Assembly (NCBI GenBank): GCA_965243025.1
Contig: CBDETY010000003.1
Span: forward strand, 4,832,001-4,896,000
DNA length: 64,000 nt
Direction: 5' to 3'
From: Candidatus Latescibacterota bacterium
Lineage (GTDB): Bacteria; Latescibacterota; UBA2968; UBA8231
Every line of letters begins with the position of its first letter. Positions within the stretch are counted from its first letter, which is position 1. This document shows positions 1-36,575 of this stretch, piece after piece. Under the pieces are notes generated by a model that was given only the letters and a program-made list of their open reading frames with translations, was not told the origin of the DNA and did no database searches. The translations under genes were made by a program, and so were the position numbers.

Positions 1-314
1 ACCTGCCAGGTGACGGCGCTCTCGTGGTCGTTGCTCTCGAAGAAGTAGAAAGGGGCGGAGGAGCGGCCGGAGCGGCTGTAGAACTGGACGCTGTACTTCC
101 GTGGGAAGGCGCTCTCCCTGAGCCTGTCGAGCATGCCGAGACGGGCGAAGGTCTGCCAGGTTCCCGGCATCAGCGACTCGCCGACCTGGAACTGCGAGGA
201 GGCCTCGCGCTCGAGCAGGAGCACGCGGTGGCCCTTTTCCGCCACCAGGGCCGCAGCAGTGGTCCCGGCCGGCCCCCCTCCGATGACGACGACGTCGTAG
301 ACCGGGTCAGCCAT
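1..314 (-). CDS. Flavin-dependent halogenase-like / FAD-dependent oxidoreductase (N-terminal part; runs off the window)
   Basis: Absent from the ORF track. Manual translation from ATG at 314: MADPVYDVVVIGGGPAGTTAAALVAEKGHRVLLLERE...QVGESLMP...FPRKYSVQF. Contains the Rossmann GxGxxG, GESLxP and FxxKxxxxF motifs. Start overlaps the upstream stop (307-309). Confidence 0.8.
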   Translation of the reverse strand, partial: MADPVYDVVVIGGGPAGTTAAALVAEKGHRVLLLEREASSQFQVGESLMPGTWQTFARLGMLDRLRESAFPRKYSVQFYSRSGRSSAPFYFFESNDHESAVTWQ

Positions 315-1605
315 CGGTCGCGCGGTGATCGGTGACGCGCCGCGCCTTGAGCTCGAAGCGCGGCAGGGTGCCGGCGGGAACCGCGGCGACCGCCGCCCGC
401 AGGCCGAGGCCGGTGTGCAGGGCCTGCGTCAGCTCCGATTCGAGGCGGTCAGGGTCCGCGGCGTCCAGCTCCACCCGGACCTCGAGCTCGTCGAGGGCGC
501 CCCGGCGGCGCACGTCGACGGCGAACTCCGCCACCTGCGGAAAGCGGCGCACGACGTTCTCGACGGCGCTGGGATAGACGTTGGTGCCGCGAATCAGCAG
601 GGCGTCGTCGAGGCGGCCGATCACCCCCCCCTGAAGCCGCCTGCCCGGCCGCCCGCACCGGCAGGGGCCGTCCCCGGCGAGGCGCACCAGGTCCCCGGTG
701 CGGTAGCGGATCACCGGCATCCCGGCGCGGCCGAGGTTGGTGACGACCAGCTCCCCTTCGGTGGCCGGCTCGCTGCCGCCGGGGGTCAGCACCTCGAAGA
801 TGAACTCCTCCTCGTTGAGGTGCATCCCGCTCCGTTCGCCGCACTCGAAGCCCCAGGCGCCTACCTCGGTGGCCCCGGCGTGGTCGAAACAGCGCGCGCC
901 CCAGGCCGCCTCGATGCGGGCGCGGGTTGCCGGCAGTCCGGCCCCCGGTTCCCCGGCGTGGATGGTGGTCGCCACGCTGCCCGAGGGCAGGTCGACCCCG
1001 AGATCCCCCGCCACCTCGGCCAGGTGCAGGGCGTAGGTCGGAGTGCATACCAGCACCGTCGCCTCGTTGGCGGCGATCGCCCGGACCCGCTGCTGGGAGC
1101 TCATGCCGCCCCCGGGAATGATCAGCGCCCCGAGGCGGCGCGCCCCTTCGCAGGCGCTCCAGAAGCCGATGAAGGGACCGAACGAGAAGGCGAAGAAGAT
1201 GCGGTCGCCGGGCCCCACCCCGGCGCCGGCGTACACCTCCCCCCAGCAGCGTCCCCACCAGTCCCAGCTCTCTGCGGTATCGAGCCAGCGCAGGCGCTCG
1301 CCGGTGGTGCCCGAGGTCAGGTGCAGGCGGGTGTACCGGTCGCGGCCGAAGGTGAGGTTGGTGCCGTACGGCGGGTGGCCGGCCTGATCGAGGGAGAGCT
1401 CCTCCTTGGTCGTGAAGGGAAGCCTCGCGTAGTCGGAGGCGGTGCTCACTTCGGCGGCGTCGCTGAGGCCCGCGGCGCCCAGCTTGCCCCGGTAGAACAG
1501 GTTCCCTTCCAGGACCGTTGCGAGCACTTCCCGCAGCCTGGCCAGCTGGCCGGCGCCGATTGCGCATTCTGCCGCCGGTGCCGGCGGGGCGGGTGCCGCT
1601 CTCAC
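307..1605 (-). CDS. Phenylacetate--CoA ligase (PaaK)-family acyl-CoA ligase
   Basis: LPFTTKEEL, TSGTTG P-loop, HAGATE, YRTGD and IRGTNVYPS motifs. Probable GTG start at 1605 (GTGA overlap with the receptor stop); the ORF track extends to 1617. Confidence 0.85.
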   Translation of the reverse strand: MRAAPAPPAPAAECAIGAGQLARLREVLATVLEGNLFYRGKLGAAGLSDAAEVSTASDYARLPFTTKEELSLDQAGHPPYGTNLTFGRDRYTRLHLTSGTTGERLRWLDTAESWDWWGRCWGEVYAGAGVGPGDRIFFAFSFGPFIGFWSACEGARRLGALIIPGGGMSSQQRVRAIAANEATVLVCTPTYALHLAEVAGDLGVDLPSGSVATTIHAGEPGAGLPATRARIEAAWGARCFDHAGATEVGAWGFECGERSGMHLNEEEFIFEVLTPGGSEPATEGELVVTNLGRAGMPVIRYRTGDLVRLAGDGPCRCGRPGRRLQGGVIGRLDDALLIRGTNVYPSAVENVVRRFPQVAEFAVDVRRRGALDELEVRVELDAADPDRLESELTQALHTGLGLRAAVAAVPAGTLPRFELKARRVTDHRATDG

Positions 1606-3698
1606 TGGATGGCCCACTCCAGGCTCGAATGGAAGGATGCCGGATCCCCAGGAATGACGGCGGTGCCGCCGAAACCGCGGGTCTCGTACTCGTCACCGGT
1701 CAGATTTCGTACGTGCAGGCGGATGCGGGCGCCCCCGACACGATACCCCAGGGCGGCGTCGACGGTGAATGCGGGGTCGATCCGGTAGCCGTTGTCGGGG
1801 GCGATGTACTGGCCGCTGACGTAGCGCGCCCCGAGGGCGGCCTCGAGGCCGAGTACTGTGCGAACAGAACTCCAGAGGTTGAGGATATGAGCCGGGGCGA
1901 AAGCGGGAACGTTGCCGGCCCGGTCGGCGAATTCGTACTCGCCGGTGAGTGTCGGCACGAACTCGGTGAACGCCGTCAGCTCGGGGTCGGCAAAGGCGTA
2001 GGCTGCGAGGAAATACCAGCGCCGGGACGGCTGTCCCGCGATTTCGAACTCCAGCCCCCGGGAGCGCTGGGCCCCGTTCTCCTTGACGATCCCGGTCCCG
2101 TCGGGAATGGCGATGTTCTCCTTCTCGAGCAGGTAGGCGGCGGCCGAAGCGCGCACCCTGCCCTGCAGCCACTGGCGGCGGACGCCCGTTTCGAGCTGTC
2201 TGCTCTCCTCGGCCTCGCGCTCGCCGGTTACCTGGGTGGAAGGAGGAGCGAAGGCCCTGCCGGCGCTGGCGTACAGCCGCAGGTCGTCCGTCGCCGACCA
2301 CGTTGCGCCGAGGAAGGGACTGAGCTTGCCGTAACTGCGCTCGCTCTCCGAGATCTCCTCATCGTAGAGGATGCGGTCGAAGCGGAGACCGGCAATCGAT
2401 TCGAGATTCCCGGTGATTGGCGACTGGGCGGCGACGTACGGGGCGAGGACGGTGGACCGGGCTTCGGCGGTCTGCGACTGGACCGGGAAGCCGCTCCCCC
2501 CCGGTTCGACCGGATCGTGGAGATCGATCATTGGCAGCAGCACCGCATCGAGAGTGAAGTCGTCCGTCAGCAGCGCGACCTCCAGGCCGGCAAGCAACCG
2601 GTGCCTGCCCGCGGCCATGACCGCCTCGAGCTGGTTGCCGGTGAAGCGCTGGCGGTCGTCGAGCGACAGCCGGGTGCGCATCACGCCGAGGGAGCCGTCC
2701 TCGCCCGGCAGGACGCCGTTGAGCAGGGTGCCGGCCGACGGCCACTCGAAGTTGGTGAAGTAGAGCTTGTCCCGCAGGGTCAGGCGGTCCGACAGCTTCA
2801 TCTCGCCGTCGAGCCTGAGACGCAGGATCGCCTGCTCGGAGAAGTCGCCGGGTGCCTGGTACGAGCGCGTCCGCGGCACCGGCGCAAGGGCATCTCCCAG
2901 AAGCGGCAGCCCGGAGTCCGGACTGTAGTCGTTGGCGATGTACTCGGCGCTCGCCTCGATGAAGGCGACGTCGCCGAAGCGGACCGCCAAAGCCGGGTTG
3001 ACCGCCCATTCGGAGTATTCCTTGTCGTCGCGGTAGTTGTCCGAGCCGCGCGTCATGGCGTTCAGCCGCAGCGCCACCCGCTCTCCCCGCCTCCAGCCGG
3101 CGTCCGCTGTCGCCCGGTAGCTGCCGTAGCTGCCATAGCTGCCCCCGAGAACCGCGAACGGGCGGCCGGCGAATACCGGTTTCCTGCGGACGACGTTCAC
3201 GGCGCCTGACATCGGCTTGCCGCCGTACAGGAAAGCCCCCGGGCCTTTGAGAACCTCGATGCGGGCGACGTTGTACATCGGGTAGAAGCTGACCTCGGGC
3301 TCGCCGGCGCCGTCGTAGAGGACCATGCCGCTCGACAGCGAGTCGAAGCCGCGCACGACGAAGTAGTCGGAGACTCCAAAGCCGGTCTGCACGTTGACGC
3401 CGCTGACGTTGGCCAGCGCGTCGCCGAGGATCCCGCCGTGCTGGGCCTGGACCAGAGCAGCCGGAACCACCGCGACGGAAGCCGGGGTGTCGCGCAGCGC
3501 CAGAGGCCACCTCGTCACCATCCCGCTCCGCTCCGGAAGGGTGAAGCGCGACCCGGTTACGACCACCTCGCCGGCGGTGTAAGCCGGCGGGTCCGCGGCG
3601 CTTTCGGTTTCGTCGGCGGGGGCCGCCGCCGCGGGGGCAAGCGCGGCCAGGAGCAGGAGCCGGCGCCCCAGGCCCCGGCCTTCAGGTGTAGCGCGCAT
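1602..3698 (-). CDS. TonB-dependent outer-membrane receptor
   Basis: Signal peptide, EVVVTG TonB-box region, plug motifs (VRGF; RIEVLKGPGAFLYG), C-terminal NLTGDEY and an aromatic final strand. Confidence 0.9.
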   Translation of the reverse strand: MRATPEGRGLGRRLLLLAALAPAAAAPADETESAADPPAYTAGEVVVTGSRFTLPERSGMVTRWPLALRDTPASVAVVPAALVQAQHGGILGDALANVSGVNVQTGFGVSDYFVVRGFDSLSSGMVLYDGAGEPEVSFYPMYNVARIEVLKGPGAFLYGGKPMSGAVNVVRRKPVFAGRPFAVLGGSYGSYGSYRATADAGWRRGERVALRLNAMTRGSDNYRDDKEYSEWAVNPALAVRFGDVAFIEASAEYIANDYSPDSGLPLLGDALAPVPRTRSYQAPGDFSEQAILRLRLDGEMKLSDRLTLRDKLYFTNFEWPSAGTLLNGVLPGEDGSLGVMRTRLSLDDRQRFTGNQLEAVMAAGRHRLLAGLEVALLTDDFTLDAVLLPMIDLHDPVEPGGSGFPVQSQTAEARSTVLAPYVAAQSPITGNLESIAGLRFDRILYDEEISESERSYGKLSPFLGATWSATDDLRLYASAGRAFAPPSTQVTGEREAEESRQLETGVRRQWLQGRVRASAAAYLLEKENIAIPDGTGIVKENGAQRSRGLEFEIAGQPSRRWYFLAAYAFADPELTAFTEFVPTLTGEYEFADRAGNVPAFAPAHILNLWSSVRTVLGLEAALGARYVSGQYIAPDNGYRIDPAFTVDAALGYRVGGARIRLHVRNLTGDEYETRGFGGTAVIPGDPASFHSSLEWAIQ

Positions 3699-5031
3699 TG
3701 CGGTACCTCGGGTCGTAGAACGCCGGCAGCAGCTGGTCGACGCGCAGCAGGCCGGTGGGGGTGAGGGCGACGGTCGCGTCGTCCCAGGTCAGCATCCCCT
3801 CGTCGCGCAGGACCTCGAGGGGAGCGGCGAAGCGGTCGAGTATGTCGACTCCGTGCTTGTCGGCGAAGTATCCGGTGCTGACCTGTCCCAGCTTCAACTG
3901 CAGGATCAGCTCCCGGGTCAGCCGCTCGCCGGCGTTGGTCGCGAAGGCCCGCGCCAGCGGCAGCCGGTCGTCGGCCAGGTCGCCGAGGTACTGCTCCCAG
4001 GAGGAGGCGTTCTGGTAATGGACGCCCCCCATGTGGGAGAAGGAGGCGACCCCGGCGCCGATCATGTCGCTGCCGCGCCAGAGCGCGTCGCGGTAGACGA
4101 ACGACTGCTCCGTCCCCTTCCTGACGACGGTGTAGGCGCTCGCGCGCTCGTACCCTGCCCGCTCGAAACGGTCGAAGGCGAAGGCGTGCCACTCCCGCTT
4201 GGTCCGCCAGTCGGCGAGGACCATCTCCTCGCGTCCTCCCCCGGCGATCGACTGCGAGTACACGGTGTTGAACGGCAGCTCCATCTGGTAGACGGTGATG
4301 CTGTCGGCCCCGAGGTCGACGGTGCGCTCGACGGTCTCCCTCCAGGACTCCCAGGTCTCGCCGACCATGCCGGCGATCAGGTCGACGTTGATTTGGGCGA
4401 ACCCCTGCGCCGCGATCCAGGGCTGCACGCGGAACACCTCCCGGGTGGTGTGGGCGCGGCCGTTCTCGCGCAGGATGTCGTCGTTCATGTTCTCGACGCC
4501 GAGGCTGAGGCGGGTCACCCCGATCTGCCGGATCGCCCGCAGCTTGGCCTCTGTCAGCGTTCCCGGCTCGCACTCGAAGGCGATCTCGGTTGCCGCGTCC
4601 CAGGGCAGCGCCGCCTTCAGCCGCGCCGCCAGCGCCTCGAGGTGGCGGGCGCTTATGTAGGAAGGGGTGCCACCGCCGAAATAGACGAACCTCAGCTCGC
4701 GGCCGGCGACCCGGGGGGAGCCGGCGTACAGCTCCACCTCGCGCGCCATCGAGTCGAGATACTGCCGGATCTGCGCGGCGTTCTTGTCGACGTAGACGCG
4801 GAAGTAGCAGAACTTGCAGCGCTTGCGGCAGAACGGCACGTGCAAATAGAGGCCGAGGTCGGGAACCTCCGGCGCGGGCCGGGTATCGAGAAGGGCGCGC
4901 GCCGCGGCGACGTCGCTCTCGTTCCAGAACGAGTACGGCGGGTAGTTGGAGACGAAGACGCTGCCTACCTCGGTGTCGGTCAGCAGGTCGTCGAGGCGGG
5001 TGGTCGCCGGTTCCGGGAGGTGGGTGGTCAT
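3682..5031 (-). CDS. HemN-like radical SAM protein (putative class C methyltransferase-type)
   Basis: YLHVPFCRKRCKFCYF (CxxxCxxC), YFGGGTPS and RLSLGVE motifs plus a HemN C-terminal domain. Start MTTHLPE at 5031 (ATGA overlap). Confidence 0.85.
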   Translation of the reverse strand: MTTHLPEPATTRLDDLLTDTEVGSVFVSNYPPYSFWNESDVAAARALLDTRPAPEVPDLGLYLHVPFCRKRCKFCYFRVYVDKNAAQIRQYLDSMAREVELYAGSPRVAGRELRFVYFGGGTPSYISARHLEALAARLKAALPWDAATEIAFECEPGTLTEAKLRAIRQIGVTRLSLGVENMNDDILRENGRAHTTREVFRVQPWIAAQGFAQINVDLIAGMVGETWESWRETVERTVDLGADSITVYQMELPFNTVYSQSIAGGGREEMVLADWRTKREWHAFAFDRFERAGYERASAYTVVRKGTEQSFVYRDALWRGSDMIGAGVASFSHMGGVHYQNASSWEQYLGDLADDRLPLARAFATNAGERLTRELILQLKLGQVSTGYFADKHGVDILDRFAAPLEVLRDEGMLTWDDATVALTPTGLLRVDQLLPAFYDPRYRNARYT

Positions 5032-6167
5032 CCTGGGTTTCCGAAGCAGTAGAGCATGCCGTCTTCCGAGCCGATCACCAGTCTGCCCGCGGCCACCGCG
5101 GGAGAGGCGGTGAACGATTCCCCGGTCTCGAACCGCCAGCTCTCGCCGCCGCCGGCGAGGTCGAGGGCGGCCAGCCTGCCGGCGGTGGTGGCGACGAAGA
5201 CGCGCTCGCCGGCGATGACGGGAGAGGAATCGACGCGGGCCCCCGCCGCGTAAGTCCAGCGCACGGTTCCGTCGGCCGCGTCGAGGGCGTGCACCTGCTT
5301 GTCGCGGCCCCCGACGACTACGGTCTCCCCGCTCACCGCCGCCGAGGAGTAGAAGGGGAACTGGCGTTCCGGCGCGTAGCGCCAGGCGAACCGGGCTTCT
5401 TCCAGGTCGACGGCGACCACCTCGTTGTCGAAGGTGCCGGCGACGGCGGTCCCGCCCTCCAGGACCGCGGCGCTTGCAGCAATGTACTGGCCTGCGTGAA
5501 GGCTCGCAGTCTCGACCCCGGAGCGGAGGCCGATGAGTCGCAGCTGTCCGTCGCAGCCGCCGGCGACGGCGAGGGTGCCGGCCACTGCCGGCGAGGCGTG
5601 CACGTAACCCCCGGTCTCGAACTTCCACAGCAGCTCGCCGTCGTCGAGCCCCAGGCAGTACAGGCGGTGGTCGTAGCTGCCGAAAAGGACGCGGCCTTCC
5701 GACAGGTTCGGGGAAGAGGTGACCGCCCCTTCCGCCGCGAAGGTCCAGAGGGCGGCGCCGCTGGTCCGGTCGACGGCGTGGAAGGTTCCGGACTCGTCGC
5801 CGAAGAGCACGGCGTTCCCGTGGACCGCGGGTGAGGATTTCACCTCGCCTGCGGCCTTGTAGGCCCACTCGATGCGGCCGTCGGCGAGGGCGGCGGCGAG
5901 CAGTCGGCCGCCGAGGGTGCCGACGTAAACGGTGCCGCCGCTGATCGCCGCGGTCGACTCGATCCCCCCGCTCCCTCCCCGGGCGGCGCTGTCTCCGTAC
6001 GCCGCGGTATCCAGGGCCCACAGCAGCTCCAGGTCGCCGTCGACGGGGGAAGCGGCGACGCCGGTCAGGCCGGGGCCGCCGCGGAAACTCGGCCAATCGG
6101 ACGAAGCGGCCGCAACCGCGGCGCACGCAGCCAGGACCTGGACCGCCAGGCGCTGAGGAGCCCGCAT
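5028..6167 (-). CDS. Secreted PQQ-like (BamB-type) beta-propeller protein
   Basis: Signal peptide followed by DWPSFRGG; repeated SSPAV...LYxLDxxxGxxxW blades. ATG at 6167 overlaps the Fe-ADH stop (TGATG). Confidence 0.85.
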   Translation of the reverse strand: MRAPQRLAVQVLAACAAVAAASSDWPSFRGGPGLTGVAASPVDGDLELLWALDTAAYGDSAARGGSGGIESTAAISGGTVYVGTLGGRLLAAALADGRIEWAYKAAGEVKSSPAVHGNAVLFGDESGTFHAVDRTSGAALWTFAAEGAVTSSPNLSEGRVLFGSYDHRLYCLGLDDGELLWKFETGGYVHASPAVAGTLAVAGGCDGQLRLIGLRSGVETASLHAGQYIAASAAVLEGGTAVAGTFDNEVVAVDLEEARFAWRYAPERQFPFYSSAAVSGETVVVGGRDKQVHALDAADGTVRWTYAAGARVDSSPVIAGERVFVATTAGRLAALDLAGGGESWRFETGESFTASPAVAAGRLVIGSEDGMLYCFGNPG

Positions 6168-7303
6168 CAGAAGGCCGCCTCGTACAGGCCCGCGAGCTCC
6201 CGCTCCCCCGCGGGCCGGGGGTTGAAGCCCGCCGTTCTCTGGGACGCGGCCTGGCGCGCGAGATCCGGCAGGGCTGCCGCCTCGACGTCGAGATCGCGCA
6301 GTCGTTCGGGCAGGTCGGCCGCGGCGTTCCAGCCGCGCACGCACTCGGCCAGGGCATCCGCCCCCGCTTTCTCCAGGCCGGCGGCCATGGCCAGCTCGGC
6401 GTAGCGTCCGTCGACCGCGGCGCCGTTGAAGCGGATCACGTGCGGCAGCATCACCCCGACCGCCACTCCGTGGGTGATCCCGTAGCGTGCGGTCAGCGGG
6501 TTGGCGCAGGCGTGGGCGGCCCCCAGCATCGAGTTCTCGATGGCGGCGCCGGCCCAGTGGGCCCCGAGCAGCATGCCGGCGCGCGCCTCGACGGAGCCGC
6601 CGCGCAGGCTTTCGCGCAGGTTGGCCGCCAGCAGCTGCAGCGCGCGGGCGGCGAACATCCGCGAGACCTCGTTGCCGTTGGCGCTGACGAAGCTCTCCAC
6701 GGCGTGCGAAACCGCGTCGACCGCCGCGGCGGCGGCCACCTCCCGCGGCGCCGTCGCGGTCAGCTCGGGATCGAGCAGGGCGGCGCGGAAGCGGGCGCTG
6801 CGGTCGCCGCAGGCCATCTTCATGCCGCTTTCCCCTGCCCCGATCAGGGCGAAGCGCTGCGCCTCGCTGCCGGTCCCCGCGGTGGTGGGGACGCCGATGG
6901 CGGGAAGCAGCGGCTTCTTCGCCTTGCCGTCGCCGCGGTAATCCTCGATGCGGCCGCCGTTGGTCAGCAGGAAGTTGATCCCCTTGGCGCAGTCCATGGC
7001 GCTGCCGCCCCCGAGGGCGACAACGAAGTCCGGAGGCCGCGGCAGCTCCCCGGCGAAGCGGCTTCCGGCCTCGACGTTGCGGCTGCGGGGGTTCTTCTCT
7101 ACCCCGTCGAAGACGGCGTGCTCCAGTCCGGCGGCGGCGAGGGATTCGACGGCCCTGGCGAGGATGCCGGCGGCGGCGATCCCCGGGTCGGTGACCACCA
7201 GAACCCGGCCGGCCCCCAGCTCGGCGGCCAGGCCGCCGAGCCGGACCAGGGCGCCGGCGCCGAACACCAGGCGCGTGCCGCTCTCGTACTCGAACCCCCG
7301 CAT
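6167..7303 (-). CDS. Iron-containing alcohol dehydrogenase
   Basis: GGGSAMD, PTTAGTGSE, DAVSHAVES and HACAN...HG metal-binding motifs. Confidence 0.92.
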   Translation of the reverse strand: MRGFEYESGTRLVFGAGALVRLGGLAAELGAGRVLVVTDPGIAAAGILARAVESLAAAGLEHAVFDGVEKNPRSRNVEAGSRFAGELPRPPDFVVALGGGSAMDCAKGINFLLTNGGRIEDYRGDGKAKKPLLPAIGVPTTAGTGSEAQRFALIGAGESGMKMACGDRSARFRAALLDPELTATAPREVAAAAAVDAVSHAVESFVSANGNEVSRMFAARALQLLAANLRESLRGGSVEARAGMLLGAHWAGAAIENSMLGAAHACANPLTARYGITHGVAVGVMLPHVIRFNGAAVDGRYAELAMAAGLEKAGADALAECVRGWNAAADLPERLRDLDVEAAALPDLARQAASQRTAGFNPRPAGERELAGLYEAAF

Positions 7304-8739
7304 CAGGCGCGCTTTCTCATGGTGAACGCCCGCTGCCGGTACAGCAGCTCGAACAGGTTCCCCTCGTGCGGCTGGTCCCAGGCGATCTCGTTCGTCGCCA
7401 CCTCGCCGAAGTTGAGGCGGTCGATCCCGGCGGAGCTCATCAGCTGCGCCCGCAGCTCAGGATCTTCCGTCAGGGCGGTGACCACGAGGGAAGGGCCGAT
7501 CCTTTCCGCCATCTCCTCCGCGGGGGCCTCGACCACGGCGACGAACGGGAACAGGAACTCGGTGTCGGCGAGCGGGTGACCGGGGTCCTCGCACCAGATC
7601 ACCGTCGGACGCAGGAAGGTGCATCCCCCGGCGGTGGCGACGCGGCCGCTGCCCCTGACCGCGGCGGTGAGGTCGACGGCCCCGGGGGTTTCCAGCTCGC
7701 GGTCGATGAAGTCGGAAATCCGCCGCGCCCCCTCCGGGTCGGGGAAGGCGGCGAGGGCAGCGTCGGGATGGTCGAGGGGGAGCGGCTCGATCCCGGCCAA
7801 GTGCCTGGCAAGGGCCTCGGCGATCTCGCGACCGCTGCGGGGAACCCAGACGCCGGAGGCGTTGATGCAGGAACGGCCGCTGTTGTCGGCGACCGAGGAG
7901 AGCAGCAGCGGCAGCGCCTTTTCCCAGTCGCCGGCCGCGTCGCTGCCGATCAGGACCTTGCTGCGTCCAGGGCCGTGAATCTCGACGCGCGGGTCGCCGC
8001 GCCAGGGAGCGACCGTCTCCTCCCCCCCGAACAGCAGCGAGCGGCCGCAGCGGAGCAGCAGCTCCCCGGCGGCGTCGTGTCCTCCCGGGTAGAGGCTGAA
8101 GGCGGCCGGCGGACAGCCGGCGGCGATGAAGGCCTGGGAGATTCGAAAAGGGGTCCACGGCTCCCGGCTGCCCGGCTTGAGCGCCAGCGGAACCTTCAGG
8201 GCCAGGGCCGGCAGCCACAGGGTGTGCACACCCGGGGAGTTGTTGGGCAGCACCGCTCCGAGAACGTCGGAAAGTCGCCGGTAGCTGAGGGTGCGCCCCC
8301 CCTGCTCCCCCCAGCCGCTGTCGATGACCTCGAGGCCGGCGCCGCGCGTCAGCCCGCCGACGATCCGGTCCATCTGCTCGAGGGCGGAGGATATCTTCGC
8401 GGCGTTGCCGCGGCACAGGGTACGGGGCAGCCCGGTGGTGGCCGACAGCTGCGCGACGTACTCCTCGAACGGCTGCACCCGCTCCCCGAGCGGCAGGTCG
8501 GCGCCCGCGAACAGCCCGCCGGCGCGGCGGCAGATGCGCAGCAGCTCTTCCGCCGGCAGGGCAGCCAGCTCCCGCTGCGCGAGGCGGGCCCGGGACAGGT
8601 CGCGGGCGATGAGCCCGGCGTTTGCCTGGGAAACCTCGGCCACCGGCTCGCCGCCGGCCGCGTGCGAGAGGGTTTCCAGCCGCAGGCTGCGGTAGGGCTC
8701 CCCCTGCCTGAGAACGGGTATGTGCACCGGAGCGGTCAC
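7303..8739 (-). CDS. Aldehyde dehydrogenase-fold acyl reductase (EhpG/LuxC-like)
   Basis: LPNNSP, LKPGS, HGPGRSK (in place of ELGGK), catalytic SGRSCINAS and EFLFPF motifs. Probable GTG start at 8739. Confidence 0.8.
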   Translation of the reverse strand: MTAPVHIPVLRQGEPYRSLRLETLSHAAGGEPVAEVSQANAGLIARDLSRARLAQRELAALPAEELLRICRRAGGLFAGADLPLGERVQPFEEYVAQLSATTGLPRTLCRGNAAKISSALEQMDRIVGGLTRGAGLEVIDSGWGEQGGRTLSYRRLSDVLGAVLPNNSPGVHTLWLPALALKVPLALKPGSREPWTPFRISQAFIAAGCPPAAFSLYPGGHDAAGELLLRCGRSLLFGGEETVAPWRGDPRVEIHGPGRSKVLIGSDAAGDWEKALPLLLSSVADNSGRSCINASGVWVPRSGREIAEALARHLAGIEPLPLDHPDAALAAFPDPEGARRISDFIDRELETPGAVDLTAAVRGSGRVATAGGCTFLRPTVIWCEDPGHPLADTEFLFPFVAVVEAPAEEMAERIGPSLVVTALTEDPELRAQLMSSAGIDRLNFGEVATNEIAWDQPHEGNLFELLYRQRAFTMRKRA

Positions 8740-8744
8740 GGCGG

Positions 8745-9848
8745 TCAGTACACCCCGACGGTCACCGACTCCTGCAGCGACGACAGCAGGCGCACGTTGG
8801 CGACCCCGTCCCAGGGGTATTCGTCGATCGGCCCGGCGCGCTCCCCCTCGTCGCGCTCGAGAAAGCGGGGCATGAAGAACTCCCGGGTGAGGGTGGTCAG
8901 CATGACGCGCCCGGTCTCCCCGCAGGCGACGGTCCGGCTGTGGTCCTCCCGGTCCACGAGCTCGATGACGGCGCGCGGATGCGAGGGGTGGTAGACGATG
9001 TCGTACCCCTGTTCCGGGTCGAAGGGACGGCAGTGCGCCAGGCCCATCAGGGTGTTGCCGTAGGTCGGTACGAAATCGATGCCGGGGACCAGCTCCTCGC
9101 GGGCGAAGCGGTGGAACTGGGCGTCCATCTCGGTGCCGCCGCAGAAGATCCCGGTGATGCCCGCCCTGGGGAGCGAGACCTTCTCGCACAGCGCCTCGAG
9201 CAGCCTCGGGGTCGTGAACAGGCAGCGGACGCTGTCGTGGGCGCGCAGGATCTTCAGCCCCTGATCGACGACGTGGCTCTTGTAGGCCTCGAGCTCCTGG
9301 TGGGCCCGGCGGCGGATCAGGTTGTTGACCCAGCGCGGGTCGAGGTCTACGAAGAAGCAGATCCCTCCGCGCATCTGGGCCAGGCGCTCGACCGCCAGCC
9401 GCAGGCGCCGCGGTCCGGTCGGTCCCAGCATCAGCCAGTCGCCGCCGCTTGGGAACCCCTCCTCGGAAAGCCGCTCGCCGAACTGCCGGTAGTCGATCTC
9501 GAAGTCGCGGATGTTGATGCGGTTCTTGGGAAGGCCGGTCGACCCGCCGGTCTCGAACACGAACACCGGATCGTTGGCGTACGCCCCCGGCACCCACCTG
9601 CGCACCGGCCCGCCGCGCAGCCACTCGTCGCGGAAATGCCCGAGCAGCTTCAGGTCCCCGTAGCCGCCGATCTCGGCCCGGGGGTCGAAGTCGAGGTTTC
9701 CGGCGAACTCGAGCCAGAACGGGCACCCGGTGTCGGGGCCGAAATGCCAGGCCACCATCTCGCGCACGTGGGCGTCGAGCCGCTCCCGGGCCGCCGCTGC
9801 TTTTCTGGCCAGGGAGGCGGGCTGGTCTCCTGCGGGGGCCGCGCTCAT
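8745..9848 (-). CDS. Truncated ANL-family adenylating enzyme (EhpF/LuxE-like)
   Basis: WHFxxxTGCPFW, ETGGSTGLPK P-loop, PTYGNT and ERD motifs; ends in GVY. At 367 aa it lacks the usual ANL C-terminal subdomain. Confidence 0.75.
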   Translation of the reverse strand: MSAAPAGDQPASLARKAAAARERLDAHVREMVAWHFGPDTGCPFWLEFAGNLDFDPRAEIGGYGDLKLLGHFRDEWLRGGPVRRWVPGAYANDPVFVFETGGSTGLPKNRINIRDFEIDYRQFGERLSEEGFPSGGDWLMLGPTGPRRLRLAVERLAQMRGGICFFVDLDPRWVNNLIRRRAHQELEAYKSHVVDQGLKILRAHDSVRCLFTTPRLLEALCEKVSLPRAGITGIFCGGTEMDAQFHRFAREELVPGIDFVPTYGNTLMGLAHCRPFDPEQGYDIVYHPSHPRAVIELVDREDHSRTVACGETGRVMLTTLTREFFMPRFLERDEGERAGPIDEYPWDGVANVRLLSSLQESVTVGVY

Positions 9849-9864
9849 CCTTCCCCGAGGCGTC

Positions 9865-10008
9865 CAGTGCCTGCGCGCGCAAGCAGTACGAAAGAGACCG
9901 CCGAAGCGCCCGGCTCGCGCGGCGTCCAGGTGGGTCGTACCGGGGATGTACGGCCAGCAAAGGCAACGCCGCGGCCGGATTCAGACACAATGACGCCGGC
10001 AGGCACTA
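9865..10008. mobile_element. MITE-like structured repeat, type A copy 1
   Basis: Terminal inverted repeats AGTGCCTGC (9866-9874) and GCAGGCACT (9999-10007). The right end sits on the CTAG containing the propeller stop. The reverse complement aligns with 36408-36575. Confidence 0.7.
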
Positions 10009-11457
10009 GGGCCCTCCGATGGCGAACAGGCGGTTGCGGCTGGCTATGTAGAGGATGCCGCCGGCGGCGACCGGGGTGGTGTACACGGAGCTGCCCATGT
10101 TGATCTCGGCGAGCACCTCGAGCTCGCGCCCCGCCTCGAGGATCGCCACGTCGCCGTCCTCGTCGCCGATGTAGACCTTGCCGTCGGCGACCAGGGCCGA
10201 ACCCCAGATCGCCGCGAAGGCGTCGTACTTCCACTGCACCTCGCCGGTCTCGGCGTCGATGCAGTAGACGAAGCCGCTGAGGTCGGCGAGGTACACCAGG
10301 CCGCCGTGGATGGCCGCGGTCGAAAGGGTGCGGTGAAAGTTCCTGCCCCCGAGGTGCCAGACCGCGGCGGTGGCGGTGACGTCGCCGTTCCCGGTGGCGT
10401 CGATGCACCACAGGTTGCCCACCCCTTCCCCGTGCTCGGGATCCTGGCCGACGCCGATGTAGACGCGGTCCCGGTAAATGACGGGTGTGGAGATGATGGC
10501 GTTGCGGGTCCCTCTGCCCCCCAGCTCCCAGACCGAGTCCTCGGGGTTGCCGTCGAACTTCCACAACAGCCTGCCGGTCGCCGGATCGAGAGCGTAGACC
10601 CAGCCGTCGCCGCCGGGAAAGATCACCTGGGGCCGGCCGGCGATGACCCCGTAGGCCGGGTTCGACCACTGGCCGTGGAGGATGTTCTCCCCCGGAGAGG
10701 CGTCCTCCCACGCCACCTCGCCCGTCCTCTTGTCGACGGCGATGAAGCTCGGGGCGAACGGCGACGGGATGTGGACGTGGCCTTCGTCGACGCCGTTGCC
10801 GGTGATCACGAACAGCAGGTCGCCGGCGGCCACCGGAGAGCAGACCGCGAGGTTGTGGGGGAAGACGTTGAGCTCCTCGATCATGTCGAGCTTCCAGACG
10901 ATGTCGCCGTCGATGCCGCTGGTGTCGGCCTCGTCCCGGTAGGGGCCGTCGTTCTCGCCGTCGCGGAACCCCTCGGTGTCGGCGGCGACGACCTCGCAGC
11001 GGTTGGAGATGTAGTACAGGCGCTCTCCCTCGACGTACGGGGTCGAGCAGACTCCCTGCTGCGGCCAGTCGTTGACCCGCCCCGAGGGCAGCTTGGTGTG
11101 CGTCGACTGCCAAAGGAAGCTGCCGTCGCCGAGGGCGAAGGCGGCGATGACGCCGCGGTCCCCGGTGAGCTTTCCGTTGTACAGCGCCTGGTTGTTGGTG
11201 CCGATGAACACCTTGCCCCCGTGAACGAGGGGGCCGGCGTAGGTCTGGGACCCGAGCTGCGCCGTCCACAGGATCCCCTCCCCGGTTTCCGTGTTCCACG
11301 CTGCAGGCAGGGGACCGGCTTCCACCGTCATGTTGCGGTCCGGGGTGAAGCCGAACATCGCCGTTTCCCCCGCCCCCGCGGGGACGACCGCGGAAGCGAT
11401 CGCCGCCGCGGCCAGGACCGCGCCGGGGAACCGCCGATTTGCGAAGAATCCTGTCAT
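10006..11457 (-). CDS. Secreted PQQ-like beta-propeller protein
   Basis: Start MTGFFANRR at 11457 with a signal peptide; Trp-docking blade repeats and acidic loops (DGENDGPY, DATGNGDVT). Confidence 0.85.
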   Translation of the reverse strand: MTGFFANRRFPGAVLAAAAIASAVVPAGAGETAMFGFTPDRNMTVEAGPLPAAWNTETGEGILWTAQLGSQTYAGPLVHGGKVFIGTNNQALYNGKLTGDRGVIAAFALGDGSFLWQSTHTKLPSGRVNDWPQQGVCSTPYVEGERLYYISNRCEVVAADTEGFRDGENDGPYRDEADTSGIDGDIVWKLDMIEELNVFPHNLAVCSPVAAGDLLFVITGNGVDEGHVHIPSPFAPSFIAVDKRTGEVAWEDASPGENILHGQWSNPAYGVIAGRPQVIFPGGDGWVYALDPATGRLLWKFDGNPEDSVWELGGRGTRNAIISTPVIYRDRVYIGVGQDPEHGEGVGNLWCIDATGNGDVTATAAVWHLGGRNFHRTLSTAAIHGGLVYLADLSGFVYCIDAETGEVQWKYDAFAAIWGSALVADGKVYIGDEDGDVAILEAGRELEVLAEINMGSSVYTTPVAAGGILYIASRNRLFAIGGP

Positions 11458-11477
11458 CCCTGTTTCCCCCGTGCCCG

Positions 11478-13733
11478 CTACCAGACGCGGACGTTGTCGT
11501 AGAAGATCTCGGCCGCCGAGTACCCGTAGAGCCCCGGACTGCCGCTGCGGTTCGGCAGCGGGTCCTCCGCTTCGATCGTCCAGTCCCGGGGCTCCTCCTC
11601 GCCGCGGCGCCAGACCTTGCCTTTGACGACCGCCCTGTCCGCTTCGACGTCGACCGTCATCCTGACGGTGTACCAGACTTCGGGTTCCCAAGCGAAGTCG
11701 ATGGTCTTCGCCATGCGCAGGTCGGACGCCCAGGAGCGGATCTGCAGGCGCTGGTGATTGCCCATCATGTCGAGGGTGTAGCGGTTGGCGATCAGCCCCA
11801 TGTCTGGGCGGTTGCGCTTCCCCCGGGCGGCCATCATGTCCGCCTGGACGGTGTACCCCGACATCTGCGGCGGACCGAGGTAGACGTTGGAGCGCTGCAG
11901 TCCGCGTTTGGCCAGCGGTTTCGCCAGGACCTTGTTGCCGTCGAGCTCGCGGACGAAGAACTTGCGCGCCGCCCCGATCCAGTGGGAGGGAGCCGCGTTC
12001 TCACCCTCGGCCGCGCTCAGGGACTCGAAGTCCTCGCTCCAGCCGCGTTCGGGGACGACCCGCACGCGGGCGTGCGCGGCCAGCGGCTCGCTCTCATTCC
12101 CGCCGAAACGGATGCTCGCGGTTACGCGGCCGGTCCGGGAAACCTCCGGGGCCGCAGTGAAAAGGGCGGTCTCCACGCCCGCTCCTGTTTCCTCCTCAGC
12201 CTCGATTTCTCCCGCCAGTCCTTCGAGCCGCCAGTCCACCCCCTGCTGGAGGAGGGACTCTTCCGCCAGCGCCCGGCCCGCGTCATCGAAAAGACGGACC
12301 CTGAAGCGCACCGAGTCTCCCGGAGCGAGCAGCACCTCGGCGGGCACGAGCTGAACCGATGCCGGGGGTTTATCCGAAACAGGTACGTCCGTCGAGGCCG
12401 GAGAACCGGACGGGCCGGAGGCCGAAGGACCGCGGAAGGAGTCGCCGAGGCAGAACAGCCCGTCTTCGGTCGTGAAGTAGACGCAGCCCCAGGCGGCCGC
12501 CGGGGAGCCGTATATCTCGAGCGGCCGGCCTTCTTCGGCGGTCAAAAGCTCCTCGTCGAGGAGCAGGCACTCCCCCTCTCCAGGCTGCAGGATCTGGAAC
12601 CTGCCGTTGACGGTGGCGGCGTAGATCCTGCCGTCGGCGGCCACCGGCGAGCCCCTGCCGACAGTGCCGATGTTGCGCTCCCAGAGCAGGGTGCCGTCGC
12701 CGGCGTCGAGGCAGAGCAGGTTGGCGGAGTTGTCGACGACGTACAGCCTGCCGTCGTCGAGCGCCGGCGAGGCGTAGCCGGCCAGGCAGGCGTCGCGGCG
12801 CCAGATCTCCCCGGTGCCGGTCACGTCCCCCGTGCCGGTGGCGTCGATGCAGACGACGCGGCCCATCTCGGTGTTGTCGACGTTCTCCTCGCTGTGGGAT
12901 ACGTAGACCCGGCCGTCTCCGGCGACGACGGAGACGTTGATGCCGCGCTTGCTGAGCCGGAAGCCCCACACCTTCTCTCCGGTGGCGGCGCACAGGGCGT
13001 ATACGGCGCCGTCGGCGTTGCCGGCGATCATCAGCCGCTGACCGCCGATATCGGCGGCCACCGGGGTCGAGTAGGTGGTGTCGAGGGGTCGTCCGCCCGG
13101 AGTCGACACCCAGACAACCTCGCCGCTGTTCTTGTCGAAGGCGAAATACCGGTGCCGGGGCACCGCCTGGTCGCCCCAGCTCGAGTTGAGGAAGGAGATC
13201 ACCACGAGGCCGCCGTCGACGAACGGCGTGTGGGTGCGGCCCCCGTACCCGGAGATGCGGCCGAACTCCTCGGTCAGCGACCGCGACCACAGCAGCTCGC
13301 CGTCGCCGGAGTAGCAGTTGAAGATCCCCTGCACCCCGTGGGCGTAGACGTTGCCGGTTTCGGGATCGCCTGCGAGGCTGGCCCAGCCGACGCGGTTGAA
13401 CGGGATCGTCGTGTGGAAGACGTTGAGGCGGTCCTCCCAGAGCAGGGCGCCGGTGGCGGCGTCGAAGCAGGCGATGCGCTCCTGCTCGGTGATCCCCTCC
13501 CCGACCCGGCCGATGACGTAGACGCGCCCGTTCATGAGGATGGGTGTCGAGCGGCCGACGAACTCCGCGCGCCACAACAGGCCGCTGCCGGACCGGGACC
13601 AGGCCGAAACCAGGCCGGTCTCTGCGGATGCCCCGGTCTGACCGGGGCCCCTCCAGTGGGGCCAGCCGGCGGCCGCCGGCTCCGGACCGGGTCCGGAAAC
13701 GAGGGTGAGTGCTAGGAGAAGGAGAAGAACCAT
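11478..13733 (-). CDS. Secreted PQQ-like beta-propeller protein with Ig-like and C-terminal lectin/DUF1080-like domain
   Basis: Signal peptide, WPHWRGP, multiple blades and DATGTGDVT. The C-terminal beta-sandwich ends GSPGLYG...FYDNVRVW. Confidence 0.82.
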   Translation of the reverse strand: MVLLLLLALTLVSGPGPEPAAAGWPHWRGPGQTGASAETGLVSAWSRSGSGLLWRAEFVGRSTPILMNGRVYVIGRVGEGITEQERIACFDAATGALLWEDRLNVFHTTIPFNRVGWASLAGDPETGNVYAHGVQGIFNCYSGDGELLWSRSLTEEFGRISGYGGRTHTPFVDGGLVVISFLNSSWGDQAVPRHRYFAFDKNSGEVVWVSTPGGRPLDTTYSTPVAADIGGQRLMIAGNADGAVYALCAATGEKVWGFRLSKRGINVSVVAGDGRVYVSHSEENVDNTEMGRVVCIDATGTGDVTGTGEIWRRDACLAGYASPALDDGRLYVVDNSANLLCLDAGDGTLLWERNIGTVGRGSPVAADGRIYAATVNGRFQILQPGEGECLLLDEELLTAEEGRPLEIYGSPAAAWGCVYFTTEDGLFCLGDSFRGPSASGPSGSPASTDVPVSDKPPASVQLVPAEVLLAPGDSVRFRVRLFDDAGRALAEESLLQQGVDWRLEGLAGEIEAEEETGAGVETALFTAAPEVSRTGRVTASIRFGGNESEPLAAHARVRVVPERGWSEDFESLSAAEGENAAPSHWIGAARKFFVRELDGNKVLAKPLAKRGLQRSNVYLGPPQMSGYTVQADMMAARGKRNRPDMGLIANRYTLDMMGNHQRLQIRSWASDLRMAKTIDFAWEPEVWYTVRMTVDVEADRAVVKGKVWRRGEEEPRDWTIEAEDPLPNRSGSPGLYGYSAAEIFYDNVRVW

Positions 13734-13811: not shown

Positions 13812-14960
13812 TTACCAGTTGGTGTAGGAGCCGTCCAGGCGGCGATACCCCCAGACCGGGCCGTCGTTCTCGACGGGGGGATTGGCCGCAGCGGCCTCTT
13901 CGTCGATCTCCACCCCGAGCCCCGGCCCCTCGGGAACCAGCAGGTGGCCGTCGGCGAAGCCGACCTGGACGGGGAAGACGTCGTTCAGGGCGGTCCCCGG
14001 CTCGCGCGACAGCTCCTGCACCCCGACCAGCGGCGAGGCGAGGCAGAAGTGCAGGCTGGCAGCGGTGCATACAGGTCCGAGGGGATTGTGGGGCACCAGG
14101 GCGACGTAATGGGTCTCGCACCAGCCGGCGACCTTCCTGCCTTCGGTGAGCCCGCCGACGATGCACAGGTCGAGGCGGCAGTAGTCGAGCAGGTCCTCCT
14201 CAAGGACCTCGCGGAACTGCCACTTGCTGGCGAACTGCTCGCCGACCGCAAGCGGAACGCTGGTCTGCTGACGCACCAGGCGCAGGCTGGCGGCGTTCTC
14301 GCTGCGCAGCGGATCCTCGATGAAGAAGGGGCGGTACGGCTCCACCTGGCGGCAGAAGTGGATGGCGTCCGGCGGGTCGAGGCGGGTGTGCACGTCGACG
14401 CAGATCTCGAGCTCCTCACCCAGCTCCTCGCGGACGGCGCGCACCCCTTCGACGGTCCGGCGCACGGCGCGCCCCGGCTCGAACAGCCGCTCTCCCCCCT
14501 CGATGTCGTCGACGGAGAAGCGCACGAACTTCCACCCCGCCTCGGCGCGCGCGCGGCAGCCGGCGACCAGGCTGTCGGTGTCGGCGCCGACGACGTGGGG
14601 ATAGCAGACCACCTTGTCCCTGACGCGGCCGCCCAGGAGCTCGTAGACCGGGACGTTCAGCGCCTTCGCCTTGATGTCCCACAGTGCGATGTCGACGGCG
14701 CTCAGGGCCGCGGTCTGCACCACTCCTCCCGGGAAGAAGCCGCCGCGAAACATCACCTGCCAGAGGTGCTCGATGCGGAACGGATCGGCTCCTGCGAGGT
14801 CGCGCTCGAACGACTTCCAGACCTCGGCCACGGCGGTGACGCGTCGGCCTATGCCGGCCTCGCCGAGACCGTGGATGCCCTCGTCGGTTTCGACCTTGAC
14901 GAAGGAGTAGTTGCGCCCCCCCTCGCTGACCAGGACCGGTTTTATCGCGGTGATCTTCAT
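13812..14960 (-). CDS. Mandelate racemase/muconate lactonizing enzyme family (galactonate dehydratase-like)
   Basis: MKITAIK start with GAGGAG RBS; DIALWDIKAK, DVH, FIEDP, GEQ and PHNP motifs. Confidence 0.88.
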   Translation of the reverse strand: MKITAIKPVLVSEGGRNYSFVKVETDEGIHGLGEAGIGRRVTAVAEVWKSFERDLAGADPFRIEHLWQVMFRGGFFPGGVVQTAALSAVDIALWDIKAKALNVPVYELLGGRVRDKVVCYPHVVGADTDSLVAGCRARAEAGWKFVRFSVDDIEGGERLFEPGRAVRRTVEGVRAVREELGEELEICVDVHTRLDPPDAIHFCRQVEPYRPFFIEDPLRSENAASLRLVRQQTSVPLAVGEQFASKWQFREVLEEDLLDYCRLDLCIVGGLTEGRKVAGWCETHYVALVPHNPLGPVCTAASLHFCLASPLVGVQELSREPGTALNDVFPVQVGFADGHLLVPEGPGLGVEIDEEAAAANPPVENDGPVWGYRRLDGSYTNW

Positions 14961-15003
14961 CCGTCTCCTCCCCTTCCTGTGGTTTTTCTTGCGGCTTTCC
15001 GTG

Positions 15004-36407: not shown

Positions 36408-36575
36408 CTAGTGTCCCGTCGCAGAAATATTTCGACATCGGGAAGCCGATCCATCCCGGCTCACGGCGTTGCCTTCGCTCGCCGTACACCCTCGGTACGA
36501 CTCGCTCAGGCGCCTTGTGAGCCGGGCGCCTCGGCATCCCGATTTTGTCAACCTATCTCTGCGACGGGACACTGA
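36408..36575. mobile_element. MITE-like structured repeat, type A copy 2
   Basis: 20-bp TIRs with one mismatch: AGTGTCCCGTCGCAGAAATA (36410-36429) and TATCTCTGCGACGGGACACT (36554-36573). CTAG at the left end; no credible coding capacity. Confidence 0.8.

Follow-up and report, generated by a model that had tools for sequence, protein, structure and literature searches.

Exported PQQ-like propellers are retained together with an EhpF/EhpG-type and halogenase-containing enzyme set encoded by a ten-gene operon shared by Latescibacterota, Poribacteria and other bacteria

The stretch of DNA analysed here (the window) comprises 64,000 nt from the genome of a Candidatus Latescibacterota bacterium (G000:C3:4832001-4896000), and its first part carries ten co-oriented genes, termed g01 to g10, which encode three exported propellers of the pyrroloquinoline quinone (PQQ)-like type, six predicted cytoplasmic enzymes and a TonB-dependent receptor. 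These ten genes form a real operon, the order of which recurs in other genomes beyond what chance would produce. Furthermore, propellers and enzymes were retained together even in genomes where they are no longer linked, which was the strongest sign that they belong together. The reading that we favour, plausible although tentatively held, is that the genes make up one functional unit in which a cytoplasmic line would halogenate an aromatic acid, modify it by radical S-adenosylmethionine (SAM) chemistry and reduce it, the product working with the exported propellers. The genes are as follows:

g01 (propA): 11478-13733, minus strand, 751 aa, PQQ_2 propeller
g02 (propB): 10006-11457, minus strand, 483 aa, PQQ_2 propeller
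g03: 8745-9848, minus strand, 367 aa, EhpF-like short adenylating enzyme of the ANL superfamily (acyl-CoA synthetases, nonribosomal peptide synthetases, luciferases)
g04: 7303-8739, minus strand, about 478 aa, EhpG-like protein of the Aldedh family
g05: 6167-7303, minus strand, 378 aa, iron-containing alcohol dehydrogenase (Fe-ADH)
g06 (propC): 5028-6167, minus strand, 379 aa, exported propeller of the ACSF4 type
g07: 3682-5031, minus strand, 449 aa, Radical_SAM and HemN_C domains
g08: 1602-3698, minus strand, 698 aa, TonB-dependent receptor (Plug and TonB barrel)
g09: 307-1617 (or with its start at 1605), minus strand, 436 aa, PaaK-like aryl/acyl-CoA ligase
g10: 1-314, minus strand, N-terminal 104 of 417 aa, flavin-dependent halogenase; the whole gene is L004:17061-18314, or G000:C3:4831064-4832314

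The junctions were taken from a script that listed in-frame starts and stops. Since the window is rich in G+C (0.60-0.75), both of its strands are full of long open frames; the family-matching, protein-like translations of the ten-gene region all lie on the minus strand. The genes run from position 13733 to 939 nt beyond position 1, and eight of the nine gene boundaries are overlapping or near-touching. Gaps of 20 and 5 nt separate g01 from g02 and g03 from g04, respectively, the g04/g05 and g05/g06 pairs are each joined by TGATG and g06/g07 by ATGA, and there are overlaps of 17 nt between g07 and g08, of 16 nt between g08 and g09 (or GTGA, if g09 starts at 1605) and of 8 nt between g09 and g10. 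The only larger gap, of 157 nt (9849-10005), lies between g02 and g03. These data, together with the searches for open reading frames and families, bore out the gene order and orientation given in an initial annotation made from the letters of the window, as well as its account of the junctions (ATGA, TGATG, GTGA, 8- and 17-bp overlaps and short gaps). As this annotation had also proposed, the contig was read beyond position 1, with 18 kb of the sequence preceding the window being fetched. This completed g10 and located the operon end: downstream of g10 stands a convergent Antibiotic_NAT gene (aminoglycoside 3-N-acetyltransferase family; L004:15873-17018, plus strand), and the operon therefore ends at g10. 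Pfam and NCBIfam scans of the operon proteins revealed no polyketide synthase, nonribosomal peptide synthetase, phz or pqq core genes, as the initial annotation had stated, and no phz-family match was found among the ten operon proteins and two flanking genes.

A scan with g03, taking one genome per species, retrieved 109 relatives, of which 80 loci were kept. According to their NCBI titles, 57 of these loci belong to Poribacteria, nine to Gemmatimonadota, seven to Latescibacterota and two to Acidobacteriota, and five carry no phylum label, one of the latter being titled candidate division KSB1. Eleven proteins were compared with the 80 loci by tblastn (>50% query cover), many of the loci stopping at a contig or flank end. 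On this basis, g03 was present in all 80 loci (median identity 74%), g02 in 75 (69%), g01 in 72 (62%), g04 in 65 (58%), g06 in 35 (47%), g05 in 34 (54%), g07 in 29 (61%), g09 in 17 (62%), g10 in 11 (64%) and g08 in nine (49%). Gene order and strand were identical in 80 of the 80 loci, as far as each of them reaches, and eight loci carry g01 to g07 plus g09 and g10. The initial annotation had made its interpretation depend on synteny across phyla, and it is upheld in this respect by an order common to all 80 loci under five phylum labels, as well as by the co-occurrence in two phyla described below.

In Poribacteria, the clusters are stretched by co-oriented inserts (L005-L068), comprising a small propeller-like gene after g03 (43 loci) and genes for a sulfatase (31 loci), LamG proteins upstream (27 loci), an M19 dipeptidase (19 loci), PhyH (16 loci) and a thiamine pyrophosphate (TPP) enzyme (11 loci). 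The interruption of the cluster by sulfatase, M19 dipeptidase, LamG, PhyH and TPP-enzyme genes, along with its occurrence in distant pieces in several genomes, could be taken to mean that this is not one system, i.e., that propellers and enzymes are unrelated and adjacent only by chance or through genome compaction. This explanation is largely refuted by the constant order in the 80 loci and by patterns of presence and absence that nearly coincide in two phyla, and we consider it extremely improbable. A variant was found in L078-L083, in which no g01 or g02 is present upstream of g03; a LarA-like gene (lactate racemase family) and a GFO/IDH/MocA oxidoreductase gene stand there instead, and g02 lies elsewhere in the genome. 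Fusions of g03 with g04 and of g09 with g10, which open frames of 800-900 aa in genus g18 had brought into consideration, were rejected, as the open reading frames of G167 have separate stops and lie in different frames.

Co-occurrence was analysed in 168 species genomes of the window's phylum, among which g03 was found in 98 (E<=1e-60), g02 in 97 and g10 in 96. The distribution by family was as follows:

family f1, 75 genomes: g03 in 48, g10 in 46, g02 in 48
family f3, 22 genomes: g03, g10 and g02 in 20 each
family f4, 31 genomes: g03 in 28, g10 in 28, g02 in 27

In the same search, all three genes were absent from families f5-f14. None of the 168 genomes had g02 or g10 without g03, and g03 lacked a partner only in G101 and G147 (no g10) and in G068 (no g02), genomes which are 84-86% complete. 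Among 176 species genomes of Poribacteria, g03 was present in 158 and g10 in 159, with 154 genomes having both, 13 neither and nine being discordant. In nearly every case, g03 gave a single match per genome. This joint presence did not depend on linkage. The distance between g03 and g10 exceeded 1 Mb in G102, G142, G141, G130, G085 and G088, with the blocks g02-g04 and g08-g10 being about 1.5 Mb apart in G102, and in G167 the cluster consists of two parts, g01-g05 and g06-g10, with about 25 kb between them. In those single-contig genomes of genus g24 where both genes were placed (G052-G056), a distance of about 0.4-1.2 Mb separates g02 from g03; further genomes of this genus carry g02 on other contigs, and both genes are present in 15 of 15 genomes.

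A tree of g03 (81 rows, quick method) was star-like; Poribacteria can be placed on one side of a branch (support 54), and Acidobacteriota formed a clade (support 99). The labels 'Gemmatimonadota' and 'Latescibacterota' were intermixed in it, which we take to be inconsistent naming. Orthologues of g03 are 70-77% identical across phyla, and the mean column identity of the g03 alignment A7 was 80%. Tree and identities fit an old, mostly vertical inheritance under strong constraint. Given this near-universal, mostly single-match and slowly evolving distribution, and the co-retention with three or four propellers, the operon does not resemble an ordinary, variable biosynthetic gene cluster (BGC).

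With regard to the individual enzymes, the whole g10 protein matched Trp_halogenase (PF04820) with 97.3 bits and several PDB entries over its length (E 1e-62 to 3e-34), namely 8ZOP (1e-62), PltA (1.3e-53), 3E1T (2.3e-53), 5BUK (7.2e-51), 5BVA (1.3e-45) and CmlS (9e-43), as well as ChlB4 and RadH. The segments GGGPAG, K73 and W218-F-W220-x-I222-P223 were invariant in eight of eight sequences, K73 standing about 70 residues in, where flavin-dependent halogenases presumably have a conserved, catalytic Lys. GxGxxG and WxWxIP are identifiers of flavin-dependent halogenases (PMC6644159), and g10 is one by its motifs and structure matches. In particular, it aligns with PltA, Bmp2, Mpy16 and CndH over nearly the whole length (E 1e-43 to 1e-54), sharing GxGxxG, WxWxIP and the Lys with them; unlike in those systems, there is no carrier protein gene in the operon, the partner of g10 being the CoA ligase g09. 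The latter gene was always adjacent to g10, even where the cluster is split. The g09 protein matched AMP-binding_C_2 (69.8 bits), 2-hydroxyisobutyryl-CoA synthetase (1.3e-54) and PaaK (2.5e-51) in the PDB, with fold and domain order as in PaaK structures, and weakly matched the FlxY and BagE/FevW models. It remained below the PaaK models (TIGR02155, 208.5 versus a cut-off of 646.3; NF041878, 239.4 versus 700), just as g07 and g01/g02/g06 fall below the membership cut-offs of the curated HemN and PQQ-dehydrogenase families, respectively.

Clusters of a similar kind have recently been described. Loureiro et al. report in a preprint 840 clusters with a halogenase and an AMP-binding enzyme in sponge and seawater metagenomes and, in the parts of the preprint consulted, these 'Halo_AMP' clusters are said to hold PQQ-like domains 'at high frequency' as well as radical SAM and TonB genes, to give hits to BagE/YtkN-type ligases and Bmp2-type halogenases, and to be orphan BGCs that have no MIBiG match and no assigned function (10.64898/2026.08.03.742642). 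The present operon resembles them in its halogenase, PaaK-type enzyme, radical SAM, PQQ-like and TonB genes, and in being found in Latescibacterota, Poribacteria and Acidobacteriota of sponges. Because the preprint defines sponge clusters with this gene content, the gene set is probably listed already, as an orphan, and may be one of its 20 connected components, yet it is uncharacterised. As for differences, the focus cluster of the preprint, CC A, is acidobacterial and has P450s, whereas the present operon has none; and the parts of its text compared here contain no mention of the EhpF/EhpG pair, of near-universal presence in Poribacteria or of propeller co-retention. With respect to the components of the antiSMASH Halo_AMP rule, g10 has PF04820 (97.3 bits), g09 has only AMP-binding_C_2, and g03, about 8.4 kb from g10, has PF00501 at 27.7 bits (cut-off 29.9). 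Besides this 2026 preprint, no functional description of the gene set was found in the open full-text literature, to which the search was confined. The initial statement that no pathway with this gene set had been described can thus be kept as far as function is concerned, but it has to be amended in that similar sponge clusters are on record as orphan BGCs.

In line with the preprint's own reading of such clusters as BGCs for brominated products, at least in the parts consulted (10.64898/2026.08.03.742642), the operon could serve the chemical defence of the sponge by making a free, secreted brominated molecule (for instance a precursor of halogenated phenolic or alkaloid type), with the propellers being bystanders or serving in resistance or processing. 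This explanation, which we regard as possible but doubtful, would agree with the resemblance of g10 to PltA, Bmp2, CndH and CmlS, with the weak matches of g09 and with the finding of the operon region in sponge metagenomes of several studies. However, the cluster is also present in pelagic metagenome-assembled genomes, as judged from NCBI titles, and it occurs in 158 of the 176 genomes of Poribacteria and, within three families of the window's phylum, in 20/22, 28/31 and 48/75 genomes, which would be unusual for a strain-variable BGC. The identity of 70-77% between orthologues from different phyla, the lack of a scaffold enzyme, exporter or regulator in the operon and the retention of propellers with the enzymes even at about 0.4 Mb or more also stand against it. 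A product that serves the propellers is preferred over a free natural product because this distribution and the propeller co-retention are unlike those of a variable BGC.

The second group of enzymes comprises g03, g04 and g05. At E<=1, the sole sequence matches of g03 in the PDB were those to EhpF (3L2K/3HGU, E 5.1e-41), the alignment running almost end to end (residues 24-357 versus 20-355 of 366). In Pfam, g03 gave a weak and partial AMP-binding match restricted to residues 206-316. Its orthologues, of 356-378 aa, represent the short form of EhpF-type ANL enzymes; this form of about 360 aa, which lacks the C-terminal subdomain that ANL enzymes usually have, is taken to be an EhpF-type trait. 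The Pfam models of LuxC and LuxE gave no match for g03 or g04 at E <= 0.01. The calls of EhpF/LuxE- and EhpG/LuxC-like proteins made initially were therefore retained in their Ehp part, given the EhpF match and the adjacent partner of the aldehyde dehydrogenase (ALDH) family, but not in their Lux part. A known counterpart is the EhpF/EhpG pair of the D-alanylgriseoluteic acid cluster of Pantoea agglomerans Eh1087, which is alike in protein length (367 aa for g03 versus a 366-aa EhpF chain) and in the ALDH gene that comes next, and unlike in context, as the present operon has no phz genes and surrounds the pair with propellers, a flavin-dependent halogenase and HemN-like and PaaK-like proteins. 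It is our assumption that the reduction step in that pathway belongs to EhpF and EhpG. In the parts of the literature consulted, phenazine clusters carry ehpF (1062 bp) followed by ehpG (1371 bp) (PMC11278526), and EhpF-O convert phenazine-1,6-dicarboxylate to the hydroxymethyl compound, one of its ring carboxylates becoming a hydroxymethyl group (PMC3175449).

The g04 protein matched Aldedh with 63.4 bits, and both the orthologue alignment and the profile placed its Cys278 at the catalytic Cys of KauB (6B4R). An invariant His242, present in 22 of 22 sequences, occupies the Glu position of the L-E-A-G-G-K-S/ELGGKS motif. In the ALDH superfamily, this Glu activates the hydrolytic water. Of the Cys and general-base Glu that characterise hydrolytic ALDHs, g04 thus has the Cys only and, because the Glu is replaced by His while the Cys is kept, it is probably an EhpG-like member of the ALDH family that acts as a thioester-forming reductase and not as an acid-forming dehydrogenase. 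The gene follows g03 in 65 of the 80 loci, and the remaining loci end early or carry inserts beyond reach. The third protein, g05, matched Fe-ADH (153.5 bits) and ADH_Fe_C (128.1 bits); its best NCBIfam models were ErcA (271.8, cut-off 550) and lactaldehyde reductase (230, cut-off 523), and no equivalog was reached.

A scan of g03 against 1.84 billion representatives at 50% identity yielded 235 matches at E<=1e-30 and 1463 at E<=1e-3, the named relatives being uncultured. Homologue searches and cluster look-ups returned only names such as 'hypothetical', 'PaaK-like' and 'PQQ-binding-like beta-propeller repeat protein'. Furthermore, a second EhpF/EhpG subfamily, 36-42% identical to g03, was found in soil and freshwater metagenomes (29 loci, L089-L117). 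There, the ALDH partner adjoins the EhpF-like gene wherever there is room (23 of the 25 loci in which a g03-like gene was matched), within a cluster of the order AMP-binding, short-chain dehydrogenase/reductase, two unknown proteins, TonB receptor, EhpF-like and EhpG-like (e.g., L098:3435-12486). The TonB receptor stands directly upstream in ten of the 29 loci (L089, L091, L094, L095, L097, L098, L101, L103, L109 and L114). Since the pair is kept together in this different cluster, its gene context marks it as a portable module, in two cases accompanied by a TonB receptor.

The remaining enzyme, g07, matched Radical_SAM (78.9 bits) and HemN_C (26.4 bits), and its CRKRCKFCY and GGGTP segments were invariant in 20 sequences. 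In the PDB, it matched HemN (1OLT, 7.8e-35) and the class C radical SAM methyltransferase NocN (9P2U, 1.7e-29). With HemN, ChuW (HutW) and NocN it shares the CxxxCxxC motif, GGGTP and the HemN_C domain, but it stays under every curated cut-off, i.e., those of HutW/ChuW (181.7 versus 400), HemN (171.5 versus 324.95), STM4012 (170.9 versus 380), HemW (150.7 versus 205.4) and HemZ. A Tyr follows its third Cys, where we presume HemN to have a further Cys. By these features g07 belongs to the HemN family of radical SAM enzymes, in a subfamily that carries no name. The PDB matches and the invariant motifs of g10 and g07 agree with the halogenase-like, HemN-like and PaaK-like calls of the initial annotation.

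That annotation had also suggested that the operon may import an aromatic or heterocyclic polycarboxylate, and import was not supported as a core feature of the system. The g08 gene was present in only nine of the 20 loci where the interval from g07 to g09/g10 is visible, and absent from 11, including all seven of the Poribacteria type, so that the receptor is an accessory member of the cluster. Its protein scored just at the cut-off of the siderophore-receptor subfamily model TIGR01783 (224.2 versus 223.5) and far below that of PqqU (41.5 bits versus 1200). In sum, the protein families, the synteny and the missing core genes proposed for this region stood, and the core role of import and the Lux relationship did not. 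An explanation centred on uptake and conversion would have an exogenous aromatic or heterocyclic acid enter by the TonB receptor and be processed by the periplasmic propellers before cytoplasmic activation and reduction, in a salvage or catabolic pathway. It could draw on the receptor genes found inside the operon here and at eight other loci, on those directly upstream of the soil and freshwater pairs and on the classic catabolic role of PaaK-type ligases. It could also draw on the window's own genome, which might scavenge cofactors: it encodes one true PQQ-dependent alcohol dehydrogenase (G000:C3:543245-544771), which scored 555.6 bits against a cut-off of 480, as well as three partial relatives with 162-173 bits, and PqqE gave no match above the cut-off, with PqqE-like matches far below. 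PqqC was not found either, although this negative is weak, as the PqqC search was positive in none of 14 control genomes. From these matches, the genome may depend on external PQQ. Nevertheless, the frequent absence of the receptor, the lack of an inner-membrane transporter in the operon and the intact halogenase motifs of g10 speak against uptake and conversion, which we judge to be unlikely. Flavin-dependent halogenases are not known to have a catabolic role.

The propellers themselves are recognisable by fold. In Pfam, g01 and g02 matched PQQ_2 (105.7 and 100.5 bits, respectively), and g06 matched Beta-prop_ACSF4 (181.5 bits, cut-off 133) and PQQ_2 (135.9 bits). They share the PQQ_2/PQQ repeat propeller fold and the export with PQQ-dependent quinoprotein dehydrogenases and BamB, but differ from both in scoring far under the cut-off of the BamB models and, as set out below, under that of the dehydrogenases. 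The N-termini of 21 g01 orthologues are hydrophobic and continue into DWPxWRGP, as expected of a Sec-type signal, and most of 30 g06 orthologues, though not that of L071, have a hydrophobic stretch, after which comes a motif of the W-x-S/R-F-R-G type (e.g., DWPSFRG). By eye, the signals of g01, g02 and g06 orthologues are of the Sec rather than the Tat type. The most conserved of the three propellers is g02, with a mean column identity of 71% in a 30-sequence alignment (A1) and many invariant His, Asp, Glu, Trp and Cys residues. Most Poribacteria encode propA as two separate genes, one for a 438-aa propeller and one for the C-terminal domain (L054:6009-8278), whereas the window's phylum has one 751-aa protein. 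The C-terminal 300-340 aa of g01, which correspond to this separate protein of about 306-317 aa, gave 0 Pfam families and 0 PDB sequence matches at E<=5, and the homologues are unnamed (452 short homologues); an assignment of this region by eye to a ConA/DUF1080-type domain was dropped for the same reason.

A fourth PQQ_2 propeller (propD, about 366-415 aa) was found between g07 and g08/g09 in 13 loci, including L030, L059, L071, L074, L077, L079-L083 and L086:13614-14714. With the G167 copy as the single query, a search of the window's genome for it at E<=1e-20 gave no match, a negative that shows little. Moreover, cluster-positive genomes had more propeller-like candidates at first look, with 11 or fewer in two of 97 positives versus 18 of the 20 negatives listed, 51 further negatives being outside this listing; this lends weak support to the reading of one functional unit.

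By analogy with the quinoprotein maturases QhpG/QhpD or with LodB, the enzymes might act on the propellers themselves and give rise to a protein-derived cofactor or a covalent adduct. The close retention of a flavoprotein and a radical SAM enzyme alongside three propellers, the invariant residues of propB and weak matches of the N-terminal 104 aa of g10 to QhpG, GoxB and LodB (45.4, 41.3 and 29.4 bits, cut-offs 240-400) would be in line with this. These matches, however, reflect the FAD-binding fold only and lie far under the cut-offs, and the whole of g10 is much closer to halogenases. In addition, g07 is HemN-like and not of the SPASM type, the propellers leave by Sec, i.e., unfolded, and two adenylating enzymes, a reductase and an alcohol dehydrogenase better fit small-molecule chemistry. 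We therefore hold modification of the propellers to be very unlikely.

Under the reading of one functional unit that makes a small molecule for the propellers, we infer the substrate, the individual steps with their order, and the link between product and propellers as follows. Six cytoplasmic enzymes would tailor a small aromatic carboxylic acid which, as there is no scaffold-making enzyme, would be a primary metabolite or an imported compound. The PaaK-like g09 would make the acyl-CoA, and g10, an enzyme of the PltA/Bmp2/CndH kind, would halogenate the ring, probably on a thioester-bound substrate and with bromide from seawater. C-methylation or a HemN-type side-chain reaction might be contributed by g07. 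Subsequently, g03 would adenylate the carboxylate and pass the acyl group to Cys278 of g04, which would release the aldehyde using NAD(P)H, and g05 would reduce the aldehyde to the alcohol. Outside the cytoplasm, g01, g02 and g06 may use, bind or further convert the product, and the TonB receptor, where present, could serve in re-import of the product or in uptake of a precursor.

Several points weigh against this proposal. The genomes compared are kin, and their co-occurrence overstates independence. In the PDB, the propellers have only generic profile matches (designed 'Cake' proteins, BamB and quinoprotein repeats), and their scores with the PQQ-dehydrogenase model TIGR03075 are 26.3, 44.8 and 70.3 bits (g01, g02 and g06, respectively) versus a cut-off of 480. 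As their export is of the Sec type, the propellers could take up any ligand only after leaving the cytoplasm. By Pfam and NCBIfam, the operon contains no scaffold-forming enzyme, carrier protein, inner-membrane transporter or regulator, so that neither the substrate nor the export route is visible from it. The reaction of g07 might be a methyl transfer, a decarboxylation or a different one, since every curated cut-off was missed, and the reduction chemistry of EhpF and EhpG is itself inferred in the literature, as far as the source consulted goes (PMC3175449). Finally, the transcript evidence in favour of the proposal is weak. In one sponge metatranscriptome library (X20), contigs with an identity of about 95% extend over parts of most genes and span the g01/g02, g04/g05, g05/g06 and g07/g08 junctions, but these contigs were assembled from a related strain; RNA libraries can contain DNA, and a contig with two genes is not the same as one transcript.

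A more specific version of the proposal, about which we are considerably more doubtful, retains the modified cofactor suggested in the initial annotation. In this version, a new aromatic cofactor or ligand, halogenated and partly reduced, would be built by the cluster or else salvaged and remodelled, to be loaded extracytoplasmically into propellers that would resemble empty quinoproteins. The sole PQQ dehydrogenase of the genome, for which neither PqqC nor PqqE was found within the limits given above, is only a hint in this direction. If this cofactor reading were true, it would mean a cofactor system new to science and core to Poribacteria and several marine phyla, as well as the first flavin-dependent halogenase to belong to a core pathway of a whole phylum and not to secondary metabolism. 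Poribacteria and the sponge-associated bacteria around them are abundant and uncultured, and they have long been suspected of supplying the brominated metabolites of sponges. Irrespective of the product, a halogenase-containing pathway that is nearly universal in Poribacteria (158-159 of 176 genomes) and that four other phylum labels share, with 70-77% identity in its most conserved enzyme, points to a conserved physiological role and not to a sporadic antibiotic. It would also extend the EhpF/EhpG two-protein module for acid reduction beyond phenazines and connect exported 'PQQ-like' propellers, a large and so far function-less family, with one specific pathway for a small molecule, with nine core genes as a compact and defined set for heterologous expression.

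Upstream of the operon, a gene of the MR_MLE family (mandelate racemase/muconate lactonizing) is located on the minus strand at 13812-15050, co-oriented and 78 nt from g01. No counterpart was present in any of the 80 related loci, and the gene is therefore probably outside the system. The 157-nt gap between g02 and g03 holds a dispersed short repeat, with 41 matches of 73-81% identity over about 80-120 nt in the 6.8-Mb genome. Its core spans about 80 nt (positions 52-130 of the gap query), and the repeat has imperfect inverted ends of 23 nt that are 74% complementary. The designation as a miniature inverted-repeat transposable element (MITE) in the initial annotation is thus fair in view of the dispersal and the inverted ends, although by sequence the repeat is only REP/MITE-like. 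A second copy is present in the window at about 36456-36535 (G000:C3:4868456-4868535).

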